Source: Omnitrophica bacterium RIFCSPHIGHO2_02_FULL_46_20 | GTDB taxonomy: Bacteria > Omnitrophota > Gorgyraeia > 2-01-FULL-45-10 | Direction: 5' to 3' | DNA: 38,928 nt | Assembly (NCBI GenBank): GCA_001804065.1 | Contig: MHFG01000040.1 | Location: forward strand, 1 to 38,928 | In this document: positions 4,113 to 9,846 of the stretch, piece by piece | Position numbering within the stretch: position 1 is the stretch's first letter | Layout of the letters: every line of letters begins with the position of its first letter | Made by a program: the position numbers and the translations under genes | Notes under the pieces: generated by a model | What the model was told of the DNA's origin: nothing | The model's input: only the letters and a program-made list of their open reading frames with translations | The model's database searches: none

Positions 4113-5402
4113 TTATACCTCAACAGCTTTTTTTGCCTCTTCATAAACTCTTTTAAGCGGCACTTTTTTTGCCCTGGCTATACGAGCGCATTCTTCGTAT
4201 TCAGGCGCTACGGTCAGGATATTATCCGGCCCAGTGCTTAATTTTACCTTGATAGCGCCATATTGTGTATTAACTTTTACTATTTTTCTATCGAGCTTGA
4301 ACCTGTTAGATTCATGGTACCTTATTCCTATGGATGTCGTTTCGCTAAATATTATCGAGCACATCTCCTCCAATTTTGCCTCGTCGCATAGCACCGTTAG
4401 TTTAAAGGCCGGCCTTGCTTTCTTCATCTGGATAGACTCTGTGTAGGCGTCTAACGCGCCTTCTTTGAATAATTTTTCTAAAGTGTATTCGAAATTCTGC
4501 GGATTCATGTCGTCAATATTCGTTTCTATGATAAGTATTCTGTCTTCCTTAAAAGCGCGTTTCCGCTCGCCTATTATAACTCTCAGCATGTTCGGTATTT
4601 CGTTAAGTTCTTTCGCGCCTGCGCCGTAGCCTATATCTGATACCTTCATTTGCGGCATTTCACCGAAACCTTTTGACAGGGCATTCAATATGCCGGCGCC
4701 TGTCGGAGTGACTAACTCTGCCTCGATATCCGATATCCTTATTGGCGCGCCTTTGAGCAGCTCGAGACTTGCCGGACTGGGCGTTGGCAATGCCCCGCCC
4801 CTTGTATTGATAATGGTTCTGCCAAAATTAATAGGAGACGAATAAATCTTGTCTATGCCGAGTTCATCAACCGCTATCGCCATGCCGACTATATCGATTA
4901 TAGAATCAATGTCGCCAAGCTCATCAAGAAAAATCTGCCCTGCGGGCATAGGCTTTTGGTAGATTTTTCTTGATCCTGACCCCGCTTTGGCGGGGGAAGG
5001 ATCTAATATAGGCAACCGAATATAATTTCCCTTGCCATCGAGATGGAGGTCTTTCTTGTCTTGCGCGCCGTGAATCTTGCCCTCTACCCTGCCTATCGCG
5101 TTGAATATATTTTTAGCCGTTTCTTTCACCCTATTATTTAATGAACTTTCATCTATGAGTTTTAATATTTCATTAAGCGATCTATGCGCGTGTTTATCTT
5201 GGCATCCCTTTACCAGGCAGTCGAATTTTGTCCCTACAAGCTCCCCGCGTCTGACCTTGCTTCTCTTGAGTTCGTATCCTTTTAGATTTAATTTTTTCAG
5301 TTCTTTGGACAATACTGCCATATCAAGGCCGGCATCGAGCAATGCGCCCAGGGCCATGTCGCCCGCTATGCCGCTGAAACAATCAAAATAGGCTATTCTC
5401 AC
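4113..5402 (-). CDS. larC: Nickel-pincer cofactor nickel insertase LarC, with a 38-aa in-frame insertion
   Basis: YFDCFSGIAGDMALGALLDAG, ELVTPTGA, ETNIDDMNPQ, MKKARP, ETTSIGIR, PEYEEC. Confidence 0.92.
   Translation of the reverse strand: MRIAYFDCFSGIAGDMALGALLDAGLDMAVLSKELKKLNLKGYELKRSKVRRGELVGTKFDCLVKGCQDKHAHRSLNEILKLIDESSLNNRVKETAKNIFNAIGRVEGKIHGAQDKKDLHLDGKGNYIRLPILDPSPAKAGSGSRKIYQKPMPAGQIFLDELGDIDSIIDIVGMAIAVDELGIDKIYSSPINFGRTIINTRGGALPTPSPASLELLKGAPIRISDIEAELVTPTGAGILNALSKGFGEMPQMKVSDIGYGAGAKELNEIPNMLRVIIGERKRAFKEDRILIIETNIDDMNPQNFEYTLEKLFKEGALDAYTESIQMKKARPAFKLTVLCDEAKLEEMCSIIFSETTSIGIRYHESNRFKLDRKIVKVNTQYGAIKVKLSTGPDNILTVAPEYEECARIARAKKVPLKRVYEEAKKAVEV
4926..5039. repeat. 114-bp hairpin-rich in-frame insertion in larC
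   Basis: CATC direct repeats at 4922-4925 and 5036-5039; stems 4923-4939/4958-4974, 4972-5003 and 5011-5036. Confidence 0.75.
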
Positions 5403-5426
5403 AAGTTACCTCGTCGCCCTTATCTA

Positions 5427-5543
5427 TGGCGTAACTTGCGGGGGCGTTGCTGAAGCAACTACCCCGCAAGTTACGCCAATAGTTGAGACCTGTCCCCTTG
5501 GGACCTGACCCCAATCAAAAAGAGAAACTCCCCCGAGGGGTCA
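5427..5543. repeat. Intergenic palindrome followed by tandem ACCTG(T/A)CCCC motifs
   Basis: Perfect 17-bp IR TGGCGTAACTTGCGGGG (5427-5443)/CCCCGCAAGTTACGCCA (5462-5478); ACCTGTCCCC 5488-5497; ACCTGACCCC 5503-5512. Confidence 0.8.
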
Positions 5544-6281
5544 ATTATTTATCATCGACGCGAAATACGCCGCGCCGAAACCATTGTCGATATTTACAAC
5601 CGCCACGCCAGGCGAACAGGAATTCATCATAGTGAGCAGCGGCGCTATTCCTGAGAAAGAAGCGCCGTAACCAACGCTTGTCGGCACTGCTATGACGGGC
5701 TTCGATACAAGGCCGCTGACTACGCTCGCTAACGCGCCATCCATACCGGCTATCACTATGATAACGCTCGCCTTCTCTAAACTATCTTTCTTGTCCAAAA
5801 CCCTATGCAGGCCCGCGACGCCTACGTCGTAAAGAGCCTCTACTTTATTGCCCATCAATTCCAGCGTAACTCTCGCTTCTTCCGCAACCGGCATATCCGC
5901 TGTCCCCGCCGTCACTATCAGAACTATTCCTTTTTTAGGGACAGCCAGTTTTTTTCTAAGATATATTATATTTGCCTTTTCTTCGAATACAGCCTTCGGA
6001 TAGATTTTTTTTAATTTTGAGCAGACTTTCTTATCGGTTCGCGTAATCAGCAATGTTCCGTCATGCGAGACTATTTTTTTGGCGATACTTATTATCTGCT
6101 CGGCAGTCTTGCCCTTGCCGAATATGACCTCCGGGAAACCCCGCCTCAAGGTTCTATGATGATCGACTTTCGCGAATCCAAGGTCCCTATAAGGTAATTC
6201 TTTTAATAGCTTAAGCGCCCTATTCAAAGAGATCCGCCCTGCCTTCACGCCCTTTAACATCCCCTGTATTCTTTCAGACAT
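5541..6281 (-). CDS. larB: Nickel-pincer cofactor biosynthesis protein LarB (PurE-like carboxylase/hydrolase)
   Basis: DHHRTLRRGFPEVIFGKGKT, AGTADMPVAEEA, DVGVAGLHR, VPTSVGYG, VVNIDNGFGAA. Confidence 0.95.
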   Translation of the reverse strand: MSERIQGMLKGVKAGRISLNRALKLLKELPYRDLGFAKVDHHRTLRRGFPEVIFGKGKTAEQIISIAKKIVSHDGTLLITRTDKKVCSKLKKIYPKAVFEEKANIIYLRKKLAVPKKGIVLIVTAGTADMPVAEEARVTLELMGNKVEALYDVGVAGLHRVLDKKDSLEKASVIIVIAGMDGALASVVSGLVSKPVIAVPTSVGYGASFSGIAPLLTMMNSCSPGVAVVNIDNGFGAAYFASMINN

Positions 6282-6285
6282 GGCG

Positions 6286-6684
6286 TTAGGATCTCAAGAT
6301 TATGAGAAGAAGCGCCGCTATGATTATTGCGGAAAGTATGTAGAAATCGTTATAGTAAAGAAAATCTTGTATCTTCTCCGCAAGATTATAATCATACTGC
6401 CGCGCCGCGGGTATTTTACGTTTGGCGTATTTCTCGCTTTCCGTGTAAACGTGAGTCTGTCGGCCTTTAGCGTCCAACTTCACTTCAACGCGGTTGGGGT
6501 CCTTCTCCTCTACGTCGGAGATCTCTTGCTTAACGGCATCGATCTGCTCTTTACGGAATCTTAAGAATGAATCGCCTATCTTGTAAGCCGGTATCTCGCC
6601 TATATCGACTAGGCGCTTCACTTCCTCTTCTGAGACACCAAGATACTCCGCCACTTCTTTAATATTCAACAGATGTTCCGGCAT
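6286..6684 (-). CDS. Excisionase/MerR-like (HTH_17) domain protein with C-terminal transmembrane anchor
   Basis: LLNIKEVAEYLGVS...GEIPAYKIG..LRFRKEQID at the N-terminus; FYILSAIIIAALLLIILRS at the extreme C-terminus. Confidence 0.85.
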   Translation of the reverse strand: MPEHLLNIKEVAEYLGVSEEEVKRLVDIGEIPAYKIGDSFLRFRKEQIDAVKQEISDVEEKDPNRVEVKLDAKGRQTHVYTESEKYAKRKIPAARQYDYNLAEKIQDFLYYNDFYILSAIIIAALLLIILRS

Positions 6685-6695
6685 TCTTTACCTAT

Positions 6696-7232
6696 TCACT
6701 TTATCTTTCCCGATGCTACCCACTCCTCAATTCTCGAACGTTCGAATTTCCAGGAATTCCCATCTCGAATCCCGGGAATCTTTCCGGAGTTCGCCCATTC
6801 ATGGACGAGACTCATGTCCACCTCGAGATATTTCGCGAGTTCCTCCGGCGTCATCGCAGCCTGGCCCTGATCGGTTCCTTTAGAATCCGCCAGCATCCTG
6901 CAGCTGCCGTCGAATGTGGCGCCCTCGGCTATGCTCAATAGGGGGGCCCGTATGTCCCCAACCACGCGGGCGGGCGATATTAGTTTAAGCTCCTTAAGAG
7001 CGTTGACATTTCCCGTCACCTTACCCGCGATGATGATAGATTCCCCGATAATGTCGGCATTCACTACGGCTTCCTCGCCGATCATCAGGTTCCCTTTTGT
7101 GTTCAATACGCCTTCGAAACTGCCATTAATCTTCAAATTAACCGAATCCTTAAAGATGAGAGTGCCCTGCATCGAAGCGTCAACATCTAAAACTTTTTCA
7201 CCTTCATGCTTTTTATCCCTTCTCGTCATCAT
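6696..7232 (-). CDS. Bactofilin (polymer-forming cytoskeletal domain) fused to a C-terminal HTH_17 domain
   Basis: Beta-helix repeats LKINGSFEG, LMIGEEAVVNADI, IIIAGKVTGNV, ARVVGDI, LSIAEGATFDGSCRM; then MTPEELAKYLEV...SGKIPG..GNSWKFER; SD AAGGAGGTGA (7247-7238) supports a start at 7232. Confidence 0.88.
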   Translation of the reverse strand: MMTRRDKKHEGEKVLDVDASMQGTLIFKDSVNLKINGSFEGVLNTKGNLMIGEEAVVNADIIGESIIIAGKVTGNVNALKELKLISPARVVGDIRAPLLSIAEGATFDGSCRMLADSKGTDQGQAAMTPEELAKYLEVDMSLVHEWANSGKIPGIRDGNSWKFERSRIEEWVASGKIK

Positions 7233-7273
7233 ACAAATCACCTCCTTAAAGAACGCGAAGCAAATTAGCTCCC

Positions 7274-7945
7274 CTATTCCGCTTCCCACTTAACGCTCTT
7301 GATACCTTCTAAATGAGCCATCTCCTGTATCAACTGAGCGTTATGTCGGGCTGTGGAAAGTTTTATCCCCACTTTCAAAACCATATTAGCGCCGTCCTTT
7401 GAGCGCTCGACTTCAAAATCGGTTATTTCACTGTCGTATTCTGACAAGACATCTCTTATACCTTTTAATTGTTCCATACCGTCTTTCATCTCTACCACGA
7501 CCGTCTTGTACCAGTCCTTTCTTATCATCACATGCTCTAATCTGCCAAAGAACATGAGCGCTATGACGGCTATGCCCGTAGTAACGATAGCGCCGAAATA
7601 CAATCCTGTCCCGACTGCAAGGCCTATGCCTGTGACAACCCAAAGACTTGCCGCCGTAGTTAACCCTCTCACCGAAGCCTTGTAGCGCATAATAGTGCCC
7701 GCGCCTAAGAAGCCTATGCCTGTGACAACGCCGGCCGCAAGCCTGGCGGGGTCGAACGTCGCCCGGCCTGAATATGCGTCAAATATATGCATTGATGCAA
7801 GCATGATCAATGTTGAACCGACGCACAGAAGGATGTGCGTCCTGAAGCCGGCTGCCCGGCCATGAAATTCCCTTTCAAAACCGACTACTCCGCTTAAGAC
7901 CGCGGCCAATACAAGACGAAATAACACAATCCATTCGTTAAGCAT
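7274..7945 (-). CDS. MgtC/SapB family membrane protein with C-terminal ACT-like domain
   Basis: GFERE...AAGFRTHIL, DPARLAAGVVTGIGFLGAGTI, GLTTAASLW. Confidence 0.93.
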   Translation of the reverse strand: MLNEWIVLFRLVLAAVLSGVVGFEREFHGRAAGFRTHILLCVGSTLIMLASMHIFDAYSGRATFDPARLAAGVVTGIGFLGAGTIMRYKASVRGLTTAASLWVVTGIGLAVGTGLYFGAIVTTGIAVIALMFFGRLEHVMIRKDWYKTVVVEMKDGMEQLKGIRDVLSEYDSEITDFEVERSKDGANMVLKVGIKLSTARHNAQLIQEMAHLEGIKSVKWEAE

Positions 7946-9002
7946 TCGCCACCTCCAAATTCGGCTCGGCGCTCAAATAAAGGTCAGATCTATATCCTCG
8001 CTTATACAATTCTTCTCCCAGAACGCCGATCATGGCCGCATTATCCATGCAATATTCTTTTTTCGGGAAATACGCTTTTATCCCGCCGGAAAATTTCGCG
8101 GCATTCTCAAATTTTTCTCTCAGCCTGGAATTGGCGGCAACGCCCCCGCCCACAACTATCCTTCTAACCTTATAAAGTTCGGCCGCCAAAAATGCCTTAT
8201 CCACCAATGAATCTAATACTGTTTCCTGAAACGAGTAACAAATATCATTAATCTCTTGGCGCCTGGCCCTGCCTGTTCCTCTAATCCCGAATGGCGAGAG
8301 GGGAGCCCCTGGCGCCAAAGCCGGCATGCCTCTCACGTAATATAATACCGCAGTTTTAATCCCGCTGAAACTAAAATCCAGCGAATCTTTCCCAAGATAA
8401 GCCTTCGGAAATTTTATCTTATTTCGATTTTTTGAAAGTTGAGCGCTTTTTTCAATAACAGGCCCCCCCGGATAACCTAGTTTCAATATCTTAGCGACCT
8501 TATCGTAAGCCTCTCCTGCGGCATCATCCTGTGTCTGGCCTAATAGTTTCTGTTTATAACCATCGCTGCAATAGAATAATGCCGTGTGCCCCCCGGATAC
8601 TACAAGCCCCACAAATGGATATTTCGGCGCTTTTTCCTCGCTTAAGAAAGCGCTGTACAAATGAGCGAGGACATGATTTACGCCTATAAGCGGCACGGAT
8701 AAGCTGTAGCTTAAAGACTTCGCTAATGATATTCCCGTAAGCAGCGCGCCGACCAGTCCGGGGCCATTCGTCGCGGCTATCAATCTTATATCTTTTATCT
8801 CTTTTCGCGCGGACTTTAATGCCTTTGTCAACGCTCCTAAAATATACTCAACATGAAATCTCGAAGCTATCTCAGGCACTACCCCTCCGTACTTTTTATG
8901 AAGATGGACGCTTGACGAAACTATGTTTGAATAAATAAGCCTGCCTGACGTAACCGAGACGCCTGTCTCATCGCAGGAAGTCTCTATGCCTAAAGTGAGC
9001 AT
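7938..9002 (-). CDS. tsaD: tRNA N6-threonylcarbamoyltransferase TsaD
   Basis: LGIETSCDET, GGVVPEIASR, GPGLVGAL, VSGGHT, DDAAGEAYDK, FSFSGIKT, GGVAAN, DNAAMI. Confidence 0.96.
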   Translation of the reverse strand: MLTLGIETSCDETGVSVTSGRLIYSNIVSSSVHLHKKYGGVVPEIASRFHVEYILGALTKALKSARKEIKDIRLIAATNGPGLVGALLTGISLAKSLSYSLSVPLIGVNHVLAHLYSAFLSEEKAPKYPFVGLVVSGGHTALFYCSDGYKQKLLGQTQDDAAGEAYDKVAKILKLGYPGGPVIEKSAQLSKNRNKIKFPKAYLGKDSLDFSFSGIKTAVLYYVRGMPALAPGAPLSPFGIRGTGRARRQEINDICYSFQETVLDSLVDKAFLAAELYKVRRIVVGGGVAANSRLREKFENAAKFSGGIKAYFPKKEYCMDNAAMIGVLGEELYKRGYRSDLYLSAEPNLEVANA

Positions 9003-9003
9003 T

Positions 9004-9846
9004 TTATTTAACCATATCTGATAAGCGCACGAACACGATCCCGTCAGCCGCCAGTTCCGGCATCATTTTGCTTAAAACGGCTATGGTATTTTTTCTATCA
9101 TGACAAATCGCTATAGCGCGTCCATTTTTAAAAGCAAATTTTCGTAATGCCAGGGCTTGCCTCTCTATGTAATCCGCGGAATTTGTGTTATCCAGGAACA
9201 TATCCCTCTTGGCGTAAGGTACGCCTAGGGCGGCGGCAACATCACGGCATATTGATTTTTGGGTTACTAAGCTGTCGAAAAAGAATAAGTTTCTTTTCTT
9301 TAGATCTTTTAGGATGATCGTCATCAAGGCCTTGTTCTCTGTGGCCTTTGAGCCCTGATGATTCGAAGTTCCTCTCAAGCCTGTAATATTTTCTATATTC
9401 TTTTCCAGAATAGCGATAACTTCTTTCTCATCCATGCCGGTCTTTATTGTGCCTGCTTCCAGAGGAGCCGATTTATCATTTGCCTCCAAAGGCAAGTGTA
9501 ATATCACTTCGTAGCCTTTCGAGCTGGCGAGTTCAGCCAAACGGCGGGAATAAGGCAAGTTCGGCAATATTGAAAAGGTTATCGGGCTCTTCGCGGCAAA
9601 TAACTCTTCGAGGTCATTCATATTGTAGCCAAAATCGTCCATTACGATAACGACTTTTGGGTGAGGGTGTTTTTTTTGTATGGACGGCAGGACGCTTTTC
9701 TTTATGGTTTCTTTGATAACAGCGCGCTTTGGGATTACAACTTTTTTTCCCGGAACATGCGCCCAGCGCCAATAGATAAGTCCTATCGCGGTAGTTAGAA
9801 TTAAAATTACTGCGGCAGTGATTATTATTATTATTTTAGTTTTCAT
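9004..9846 (-). CDS. Divergent polysaccharide deacetylase (YibQ family)
   Basis: IVMDDFGY, ILHLPLE, NHQGS, FFDS, RDMFLDN, AIAICH; N-terminal TM; follows ctpA as is typical. Confidence 0.9.
   Translation of the reverse strand: MKTKIIIIITAAVILILTTAIGLIYWRWAHVPGKKVVIPKRAVIKETIKKSVLPSIQKKHPHPKVVIVMDDFGYNMNDLEELFAAKSPITFSILPNLPYSRRLAELASSKGYEVILHLPLEANDKSAPLEAGTIKTGMDEKEVIAILEKNIENITGLRGTSNHQGSKATENKALMTIILKDLKKRNLFFFDSLVTQKSICRDVAAALGVPYAKRDMFLDNTNSADYIERQALALRKFAFKNGRAIAICHDRKNTIAVLSKMMPELAADGIVFVRLSDMVK

Follow-up and report, generated by a model that had tools for sequence, protein, structure and literature searches.

A bactofilin fused to a winged helix and a tail-anchored protein with the same domain type form a conserved gene pair in Omnitrophota

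The 38,928-nucleotide contig MHFG01000040.1 of Omnitrophica bacterium RIFCSPHIGHO2_02_FULL_46_20 (which, at its full length, we call the window) carries two short adjacent genes on its minus strand whose products may connect a bactofilin filament to the cell membrane. The upstream one, gene 1 (6696–7232, with the stop codon at 6696–6698 counted in), encodes a 178-residue protein in which a bactofilin is fused to a C-terminal winged helix-turn-helix (HTH) domain of the HTH_17 family. After a spacer of 11 nt (6685–6695) follows gene 2 (6286–6684, including its stop codon at 6286–6288), encoding a 132-residue membrane protein with an HTH_17 winged helix of its own at the N-terminus and a transmembrane (TM) helix at the opposite end. 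Nearly all Omnitrophota keep such a bactofilin-HTH fusion beside a membrane-anchored protein with the same domain. The original prediction, made from the letters of this stretch alone, had recognised two adjacent genes 11 nt apart, a complete bactofilin with a C-terminal HTH_17 domain and a strong Shine-Dalgarno sequence in one, an N-terminal HTH_17 domain, a charged linker and a single C-terminal TM helix in the other, and no integrase or phage genes nearby; our analysis bears out each of these elements.

Translation of gene 1 can be placed at the ATG at 7232, where the N-termini of its homologues align, and not at the upstream in-frame GTG at 7289. The Shine-Dalgarno sequence AGGAGG (7241–7246, read from the sequence on the same strand as all features described here) lies 8 nt ahead of this ATG. 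Across relatives the distance between the two genes runs from −32 to +127 nt, and a relative of 90–95% similarity, known from contigs of another study, has a 1-nt deletion at 6695, within the 11-nt spacer and outside both open reading frames (ORFs). Over positions 5541–7945 only two indels are listed for this same relative, at 6695 and 7271, both in intergenic spacers.

Residues 14–111 of gene 1 (6900–7193) form the bactofilin core, matching the Pfam Bactofilin family (PF04519) over model positions 2–97 of 98 (E 3.9e-23, 82 bits compared to a cut-off of 27.9). When the whole 1.31-Mb genome is scanned, this is the sole match to the family (83.2 bits). An AlphaFold2 model built from a 41-row alignment has a mean predicted local distance difference test score (pLDDT) of 82.9 and consists of a beta-helix, a low-confidence linker and a winged helix, with the beta strands spanning residues 14–108 at a pLDDT of 89–95. 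Foldseek matches the core to the bactofilin BacA of Caulobacter crescentus (PDB ID: 2n3d; target TM-score 0.84, root-mean-square deviation 2.1) and to the Thermus thermophilus structure 6rib (0.77), with E-values of only 1e-3 for what is a small domain. Phe107 aligns with Phe130 of BacA, and the position is hydrophobic in all 41 homologues (F in 24, L in 10, I in 5 and V in 2). Since the F130R variant of BacA is reported to be polymerisation-deficient (PMC12448750), keeping a hydrophobic residue here makes the core of gene 1 look capable of polymerisation. The linker that follows (residues 112–126; 6855–6899) appears flexible, with a pLDDT below 50 at residues 117–123 and gaps in the alignment; its length varies, and about 13 residues are absent in some classes.

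Ahead of the core lies a short basic tail, MMTRRDKKHEGEK (7194–7232), with a pLDDT below 50 at residues 1–11. The membrane-targeting sequence (MTS) of BacA is MFSKQAKS, in which F2, K4 and K7 are described as critical (PMC12448750). The gene 1 protein begins MMTRRDKK, which has an MTS-like charge and lacks the canonical Phe2. Among its homologues position 2 is M or A in 34/41, and F is found at position 2 or 3 in four; Met2 could partly substitute for the missing phenylalanine. For BacA itself the MTS is reported to be replaceable by the bitopic client PbpC when that protein is overproduced (PMC12448750). One relative carries, besides its fusion, a second bactofilin match without an HTH (G027:C43:7140–7511; query residues 5–128, E 2e-23).

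The gene 2 protein begins with its winged helix (residues 5–53; 6526–6672), continues with a charged linker (residues 54–100; 6385–6525) delimited by alignment, a charge table and low pLDDT, and passes through an aromatic juxtamembrane motif (residues 101–115; 6340–6384; consensus ERxxDFxYFNDFY, pLDDT 75–94) into the C-terminal TM helix (residues 113–131; 6292–6348). Hydropathy averaged over 17 residues peaks at 3.06 in the segment that begins with residue 114 of 132, and the AlphaFold2 model (mean pLDDT 68.2) places a helix at residues 113–131. The protein is predicted to be tail-anchored, because only 1–2 residues are left beyond this helix. All 30 partners that we compared (29 relatives and the window's own) follow the same plan of an N-terminal HTH_17 domain, a linker of variable length, the aromatic motif and a terminal hydrophobic helix, with the hydropathy peak falling in the last 17–21 residues in every one. 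Within the motif and the start of the helix D107, F108, F114 and Y115 are conserved at ≥90%. The linker is about 49 residues long in the window's order, compared to 10–30 elsewhere; this order-specific insertion has a conserved motif of its own (KGxPTHPYTDLE...REPxxRQYDYT) that is absent from the other classes.

A profile of the C-terminal module of gene 2, comprising the last 42 residues, gave 217 matches at E≤1e-3 among 1.84 billion representative sequences, and among the 150 of these that were listed all but one are ≤154 residues long, nearly all bearing the module at their C-terminus. Two matches look different by eye: a 281-residue protein (P0351) that has the module near its end and RCC1-like WGxxxxGQLG repeats in its N-terminal part, and a 142-residue one (P0303) with an aconitase/LeuC-like N-terminal fragment and about 10 residues following the module. 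Both probably stem from contigs or gene calls that are chimeric.

The two HTH domains are of the same type and are related to one another. Both exceed the Pfam cut-off of 27 for HTH_17 (PF12728), with 45.3 bits for gene 1 (E 1e-11) and 48.7 bits for gene 2 (E 8.9e-13), and both exceed the cut-off of 28.8 for the excisionase-type family TIGR01764 (41.3 and 43.5 bits); aligned as profiles they are homologous with an hhalign probability of 97% at 24% identity. In the fused domain (residues 127–175; 6708–6854) AlphaFold2 places helices at 129–136 and 140–149, wing strands within 155–163 and a last helix at 165–173. The models of both proteins adopt a winged-helix fold, which Foldseek matches to BldC, Xis and RacA with target TM-scores of 0.64–0.85; for the fused domain the match to BldC (PDB ID: 6ama) has a score of 0.75, and for the partner domain the top match is the RacA-DNA complex (PDB ID: 5i44). 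By profile the partner domain matches Pukovnik Xis (PDB ID: 4j2n; E 5.7e-6) and BldC (E 4.5e-4), so that the nearest solved relatives of the two domains are Pukovnik Xis, BldC, RdfS and RacA. The Xis/BldC-like character that the original prediction had given to both domains is thus confirmed.

These relatives allow the DNA-reading residues to be compared. In BldC, Lys26 and Arg30 on the recognition helix are reported to contact bases, with R30A abolishing DNA binding, Thr27, Thr29 and Lys33 to contact phosphates, and Trp31 to make a backbone contact and to lie in the head-to-tail dimer interface; RacA uses an arginine equivalent to Arg30 (PMC5859096). We mapped 41 fused and 38 partner domains onto BldC through profile alignments. 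At the Arg30 position the fused domain has E or D in 39/41 (E145 in the window), and the partner has R or K in 26/38 (R24 in the window) and an acidic residue in 8/38. The Lys26 position is K or R in 10 of the fused domains and mostly E or D in the partners, which are also mostly E or D at the Thr27 position, and the Lys33 position is K or R in 8 and N in 19 of the fused domains, and mostly acidic or neutral in the partners. Tryptophan at the Trp31 position is kept in 38 of the 41 fused domains (W146) and is leucine in 34 of the 38 partners. In the wing, the position of BldC Arg48 is K or R in 30/41 fused domains (K/R162) and R in every partner (38/38; R42), and that of Arg50 is E or D in 32/41 fused domains and R or K in 35/38 partners (position 44).

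The net charge follows the same division, being 0 or below in 39 of the 41 fused domains and ranging from −7 to +7 in the partners, of which 16 of 38 are positive. The window's own domains have a net charge of −3 (gene 1) and −2 (gene 2), compared to +4 to +8 for the remaining five HTH_17 domains encoded in this genome, which served as an internal control. The fused HTH has therefore lost the residues with which its relatives read DNA and, given an acidic residue at the Arg30 position and a net charge of 0 or below, is expected to be a poor DNA reader; we infer that canonical DNA reading has been lost from the filament-borne domain. The partner's domain is ambiguous in this respect. A caveat that both recognition helices are rather acidic had accompanied the original prediction, and it proves well founded, and the proposed filament displaying an array of DNA-binding HTHs becomes doubtful on the same counts. 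The five other domains lie at C64:7271–7417, C3:38437–38583, C27:11983–12126, C27:12923–13069 and C58:13958–14110 of the genome (G000). Three of them are in open frames of 63–79 residues and the C64 frame has 104; the two on C27 are about 800 nt apart, and the C58 domain heads a 197-residue open frame whose C-terminal part resembles a response-regulator receiver by eye.

To follow the pair across the phylum we used 151 evenly drawn Omnitrophota genomes, 125 of them of high quality, calling the fusion by a match to gene 1 at E≤1e-15 and the partner by a match to the gene 2 profile at E≤1e-10. The fusion is present in 133/151 genomes (111/125 of the high-quality ones), once per genome apart from a single genome with two matches, and the partner is present in 144/151, where one match is confined to the HTH and another is truncated at the end of its contig. 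In all 133 genomes with the fusion the partner lies on the same contig and strand, downstream at a distance of 0 to about 360 nt, as judged by comparing the printed coordinates by eye. A scripted check of loci found the partner ORF directly downstream in 29/29 assessable relatives, one further locus that ended too early being left out. In the wider protein collection gene 1 has 1844 relatives at E≤1e-3, and all 120 of those listed have both domains. Conservation of the pair across the phylum, a check set in advance for the original prediction, is thus strongly borne out, with the genes adjacent and co-directional wherever both occur.

Adjacency is maintained though the surroundings are not. 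In the window's class the order is S41 protease (Ctp)-deacetylase-TsaD-MgtC-[pair]-LarB, and in other classes it is [pair]-GreA-AcpS-YdjC-like followed by a fourth conserved gene; since the flanking genes differ between classes and are conserved within them, the pair behaves as a conserved evolutionary unit. All Atlas look-alike clusters with both domains are labelled Omnitrophota, and the best 80 of 542 species-representative loci are titled Omnitrophota or Omnitrophica, or belong to metagenome-assembled genomes titled ‘uncultured Planctomycetia bacterium’, which look like coarse or wrong labels. At least one locus with a Planctomycetia title (L038) coincides in its contig range with L004 (G023:C44:4167–7694), a locus whose genome is placed in the window's family. 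A search for a Rosetta-stone fusion of the two genes found no relative of 313–2000 residues, which is weak evidence.

The two genes are not lost symmetrically. The fusion is missing from 18/151 genomes, and ten of these retain a partner match, which is close to full length in nine and broken off at the end of a contig in the tenth. Leaving out two in which the partner lies at a contig edge and the upstream gene cannot be judged, the loci fetched from the remaining eight fusion-negative genomes have a full-length partner with no bactofilin upstream. For instance, two 99%-complete genomes from a single genus in the family of the window have the order MgtC-partner-LarB, 12 nt standing in place of the bactofilin gene, and in another family the order is TsaD-partner-PolA. 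A search for PF04519 anywhere in five partner-only genomes (96–100% complete) found it in none of them. The partners of these bactofilin-less lineages retain the HTH, the aromatic motif and the TM helix. The converse, a fusion without a partner, was seen in 0/133 genomes. The bactofilin has therefore disappeared on at least three occasions from lineages that retain the partner, and since the partner is kept after this loss it has a function of its own; the bactofilin-HTH protein appears to need the partner, so that the dependence is one-way. A two-part machine in which each part is obligate is inconsistent with this pattern.

The region around the pair is a dense co-directional run of unrelated housekeeping genes, encoding YchF, Dus, a PDZ protein, LarC, a LarB-like protein, MgtC (MgtC-ACT), TsaD, a polysaccharide deacetylase, an S41 protease, GatB, GatA and KsgA, and no integrase or phage genes are found among the neighbours, which were scanned to about 15.7 kb of the window. 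Directly after the pair, starting 4 nt past the stop codon of gene 2, comes the LarB-like gene (5541–6281, minus strand; AIR-carboxylase fold) and then LarC, a nickel insertion protein (4113–5402, minus strand); these two lar genes suggest synthesis of the nickel-pincer cofactor. A scan of 5400–9100 for promoters and terminators stayed at chance level (5 found compared to 5.4 expected, and 4 compared to 3.5), and a weak terminator-like hairpin at 7257–7272 (minus strand), in the 41-nt spacer between the MgtC and bactofilin genes, comes from this same scan. In the one RNA run considered (X20) contigs cover only 5543–5983 in the LarB-like gene and none lie over the pair, which is uninformative about its transcription.

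Several known identities can be set aside. Gene 1 scores 24.4 bits for the BldC family (NF033787) against a cut-off of 77, and gene 2 has no match to it; gene 2 scores 16.2 bits for RacA (NF009648) against a cut-off of 170 (E 0.0078). For MAD1 of the MADS defence system (NF047737) the scores are 41.2 and 45.3 bits against 80, PADLOC reports only a mad1 HTH match, and the neighbours are housekeeping genes. Neither protein matches the DUF4004 family of BacR at E≤0.01. A prophage or integrative and conjugative element excisionase (Xis, or recombination directionality factor) does not fit a locus that is syntenic and conserved across the phylum rather than patchy, with no integrase among the scanned neighbours. 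Replacement of RodZ is rejected, as both MreB and an ORF containing RodZ_C occur in the genome. Replacement of ParB is likewise rejected, with ParB present in 143/151 genomes of the phylum and in 7/7 of the same family; a search for ParB_N in the window's genome (92.5% complete) gave no match, probably owing to an assembly gap rather than to a real loss.

Taken together, the architecture, the phylum-wide synteny, the one-way dependence and the altered residues of the fused HTH lead us to favour, tentatively and as somewhat short of an even chance, a reading in which the tail-anchored protein acts as a receptor at the membrane, and the HTH of the bactofilin is the part that docks on it. A core that looks capable of polymerisation, the missing phenylalanine of the MTS and the precedents of PbpC, PadC, BacR and RodZ speak for it as well. 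The gene 2 protein would be the primary component, residing in the inner membrane, showing its winged helix to the cytoplasm and able to function alone. The fused winged helix of gene 1 would have been repurposed as a protein-docking adaptor that no longer reads DNA and attaches to the partner's cytoplasmic part; the simplest such attachment would be a heterotypic head-to-tail contact between the two winged helices, of the kind made by BldC and Xis. The partner would in this way draw the bactofilin polymer to the membrane and would itself be clustered and positioned by it. The contact, its interface, the polymerisation and the recruitment are inferred steps, and the partner itself may serve to tether DNA or the nucleoid, or in some other capacity.

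A number of observations weigh against this docking scheme. No direct evidence of a contact within the pair was obtained: prediction of the full-length complex from separate alignments gave a score of 0.18 (mark 0.32), which is evidence neither way, and the BldC-type salt bridge R22-E16′ is not conserved in either orientation by our own mapping (E137 faces E10), and therefore lends no support to a specific HTH-HTH interface. In some classes the linker of gene 1 is only about 3 residues long, which would put the HTH beside the C-terminal polymerisation face. The basic N-terminus with Met2 found in the window's family could, from its sequence, be a weak MTS in its own right, in which case no anchor would be needed. 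Since the partner works in the absence of a bactofilin, anchoring a filament cannot be its sole role. Moreover, the basic wing residues of the partner are kept (R42 in 38/38, R or K at position 44 in 35/38); these are typical of minor-groove docking and, with R or K at the Arg30 equivalent in 26/38, suggest that the partner may be a real DNA binder, with DNA possibly part of the assembly. The kept W146 and K/R162 leave some room for a non-canonical mode of DNA binding by the fused domain as well.

These last points lead to an alternative in which DNA is the common element. Both winged helices would be DNA binders that join into head-to-tail assemblies on direct repeats, as do BldC, Xis and RdfS, and a chromosomal region would be kept at the membrane by the bactofilin polymer together with the tail anchor, much as by RacA and DivIVA. 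Two homologous domains above the HTH_17 cut-off, whose closest solved relatives are the DNA-bound BldC, Pukovnik Xis, RdfS and RacA, in a pair conserved across the phylum, are what one would expect from such a tether, as are the invariant wing arginine of the partner, its mostly basic Arg30 equivalent and the net positive charge of 16 of the 38 partner domains, most of them from other classes. BldC is reported to oligomerise only on DNA (PMC5859096), so shared DNA could join the two proteins. However, the base-reading arginine of the fused domain is replaced by E or D and its charge is 0 or below (each in 39/41), both domains of the window's lineage are acidic next to the genome's other five, and the acidic Arg30 equivalents among the partners (8/38) mean that the partners do not all read one conserved DNA site. 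With ParB in 143/151 genomes the phylum also has conventional segregation machinery, and the partner persists without any bactofilin. We consider this tether possible, if on the unlikely side. A phylum-specific three-way form of it, in which the winged helices arrayed on a nucleotide-independent polymer co-assemble head-to-tail on DNA with that of the partner, pin a chromosomal region or the nucleoid to the membrane and use the acidic HTH as a non-DNA-reading ‘cap’ or spacer subunit in a mixed BldC-like oligomer, seems to us rather unlikely; if true, it would be a polarity or segregation landmark working alongside ParABS. Of the tether put forward in the original prediction, the phylum-wide conservation of the pair and the homology of its HTHs stand, and the fused HTH as a DNA binder is doubtful; the pair can hardly be a minimal substitute for ParABS where ParB is so widely present.

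Two further explanations place less weight on a filament anchor. The partner could be a membrane-held transcription regulator whose free amount is set by the bactofilin, through its core or its HTH as a decoy, for instance in autoregulation of the operon or in reporting the state of the envelope. Bacillus subtilis offers a precedent in BacR, an HTH regulator encoded with two bactofilins, which are reported to bind to it, retain it at the membrane and weaken its binding to DNA (PMC13649987). The acidic HTH of the fusion, as a lookalike, could compete with the regulator, and a regulator would remain functional without the bactofilin, as the partner does. Against this, the anchor is permanent, with 1–2 extracytoplasmic residues and no sensor domain, and no cleavage module is seen; DUF4004 is not matched at E≤0.01, promoters and terminators predicted around the locus are about as many as chance would give, and the operon context varies by class, which makes a conserved local target unlikely. 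We regard such a switch as improbable. Lastly, the two could be independent housekeeping proteins without physical coupling, merely adjacent in streamlined genomes, as might be supposed from the dense co-directional array of unrelated genes around them and from a partner that can exist alone. Yet the adjacency outlasts a complete turnover of flanking genes between classes and holds in all 133 genomes with both genes, the two proteins share one otherwise unrelated domain type, and the fusion is never seen without the partner, all of which makes mere adjacency very improbable. The docking of the bactofilin on a membrane receptor remains the reading we prefer.

We see in the pair a bactofilin scaffold that has a client or anchor of its own, and it could be more than this if DNA takes part in the assembly; the likely effect of the pairing is to connect a filament with the membrane, and perhaps with DNA too. 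Full-text literature searches, judged by title and abstract among the papers listed, found no paper describing a bactofilin-HTH and tail-anchored HTH pair, in agreement with the earlier impression that no such system had been described, and the database annotations are generic (‘polymer-forming cytoskeletal protein’ and ‘excisionase family DNA binding protein’). Bactofilins are widespread scaffolds, for which the mode of anchoring and the structures that they organise are understood only in a handful of model species, and to our knowledge few of their clients have been identified. Omnitrophota are an uncultivated phylum of ultra-small bacteria. Here the phylum's only bactofilin bears a built-in folded adaptor domain, with its putative receptor encoded next door. 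At 178 and 132 residues, the two proteins make a genetically defined filament-adaptor-membrane system small enough for reconstitution, and the one-way pattern of loss, with the partner kept without the bactofilin and the reverse not seen, provides a testable hierarchy. The fused domain may also be a natural case of a MerR/Xis-type winged helix switched from DNA to protein binding. If a DNA tether were true after all, it would be a new way of attaching the chromosome to the envelope.

The pair can be compared with several known systems. It shares a fold and the HTH_17 sequence pattern with BldC, Xis and RdfS (PDB IDs: 6ama; 6amk; 4j2n; 8dgl), and the pattern VDxxxVxxWAxxGK of the fused domain mirrors the recognition helix of BldC. 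The fused domain differs from BldC in its E or D for Arg30, its mostly non-basic residues for Lys26 and Lys33 and its net acidic character, and whereas the domains of BldC, Xis and RdfS are free, here they are tied to a filament or to a membrane anchor. RacA, the chromosome-anchoring protein of B. subtilis, is brought to the pole by way of a coiled coil and DivIVA. The resemblance lies in a winged helix that ties something to the cell envelope, together with the weak NCBIfam match of the partner HTH; however, RacA makes its link to the pole without a TM helix, and its DNA-reading arginine has an equivalent in the partner that is not conserved across the phylum (R or K in 26/38).

Other systems resemble the pair in organisation. 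BacR of B. subtilis (YhbD, DUF4004) is an HTH protein genetically coupled to bactofilins, and BacE and BacF are reported to bind it near the HTH, to localise it to the membrane and to lower its DNA binding (PMC13649987). As described there, BacR is soluble, belongs to DUF4004 and is encoded upstream of bactofilins that have no HTH, whereas in the present pair the bactofilin itself carries one HTH and a tail-anchored protein the other. In Myxococcus xanthus the adaptor PadC, encoded immediately downstream of bacNOP, is reported to bind the C-terminal extension that BacP carries and to link the bactofilin scaffold to chromosome organisation (PMC5703909). The likeness is that of an adaptor gene directly downstream of bactofilin genes; by the same account PadC is soluble and ParB-like and serves to recruit ParA, and BacP has a disordered extension, in contrast to the folded winged helix and membrane partner found here. 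A bitopic protein whose cytoplasmic domain serves as adaptor or anchor for a filament is described for RodZ, whose HTH-containing domain acts on MreB, and for PbpC with BacA (PMC6052060; PMC12448750). Both RodZ and PbpC differ from the partner in having periplasmic domains, and the HTH of RodZ is of another type than HTH_17.

Close relatives, too, are the canonical bactofilins themselves, represented by C. crescentus BacA (PDB ID: 2n3d) and that of T. thermophilus (PDB IDs: 6ria; 6rib), which have in common with gene 1 the beta-helical DUF583/Bactofilin core, a hydrophobic residue at the position of BacA F130 and a short, basic, disordered N-terminal tail. Gene 1 departs from them in lacking the Phe2 of the canonical MTS in 37/41 homologues, in having a folded HTH_17 winged helix in place of the usual disordered C-terminal tail, and in being always followed by its tail-anchored HTH partner.

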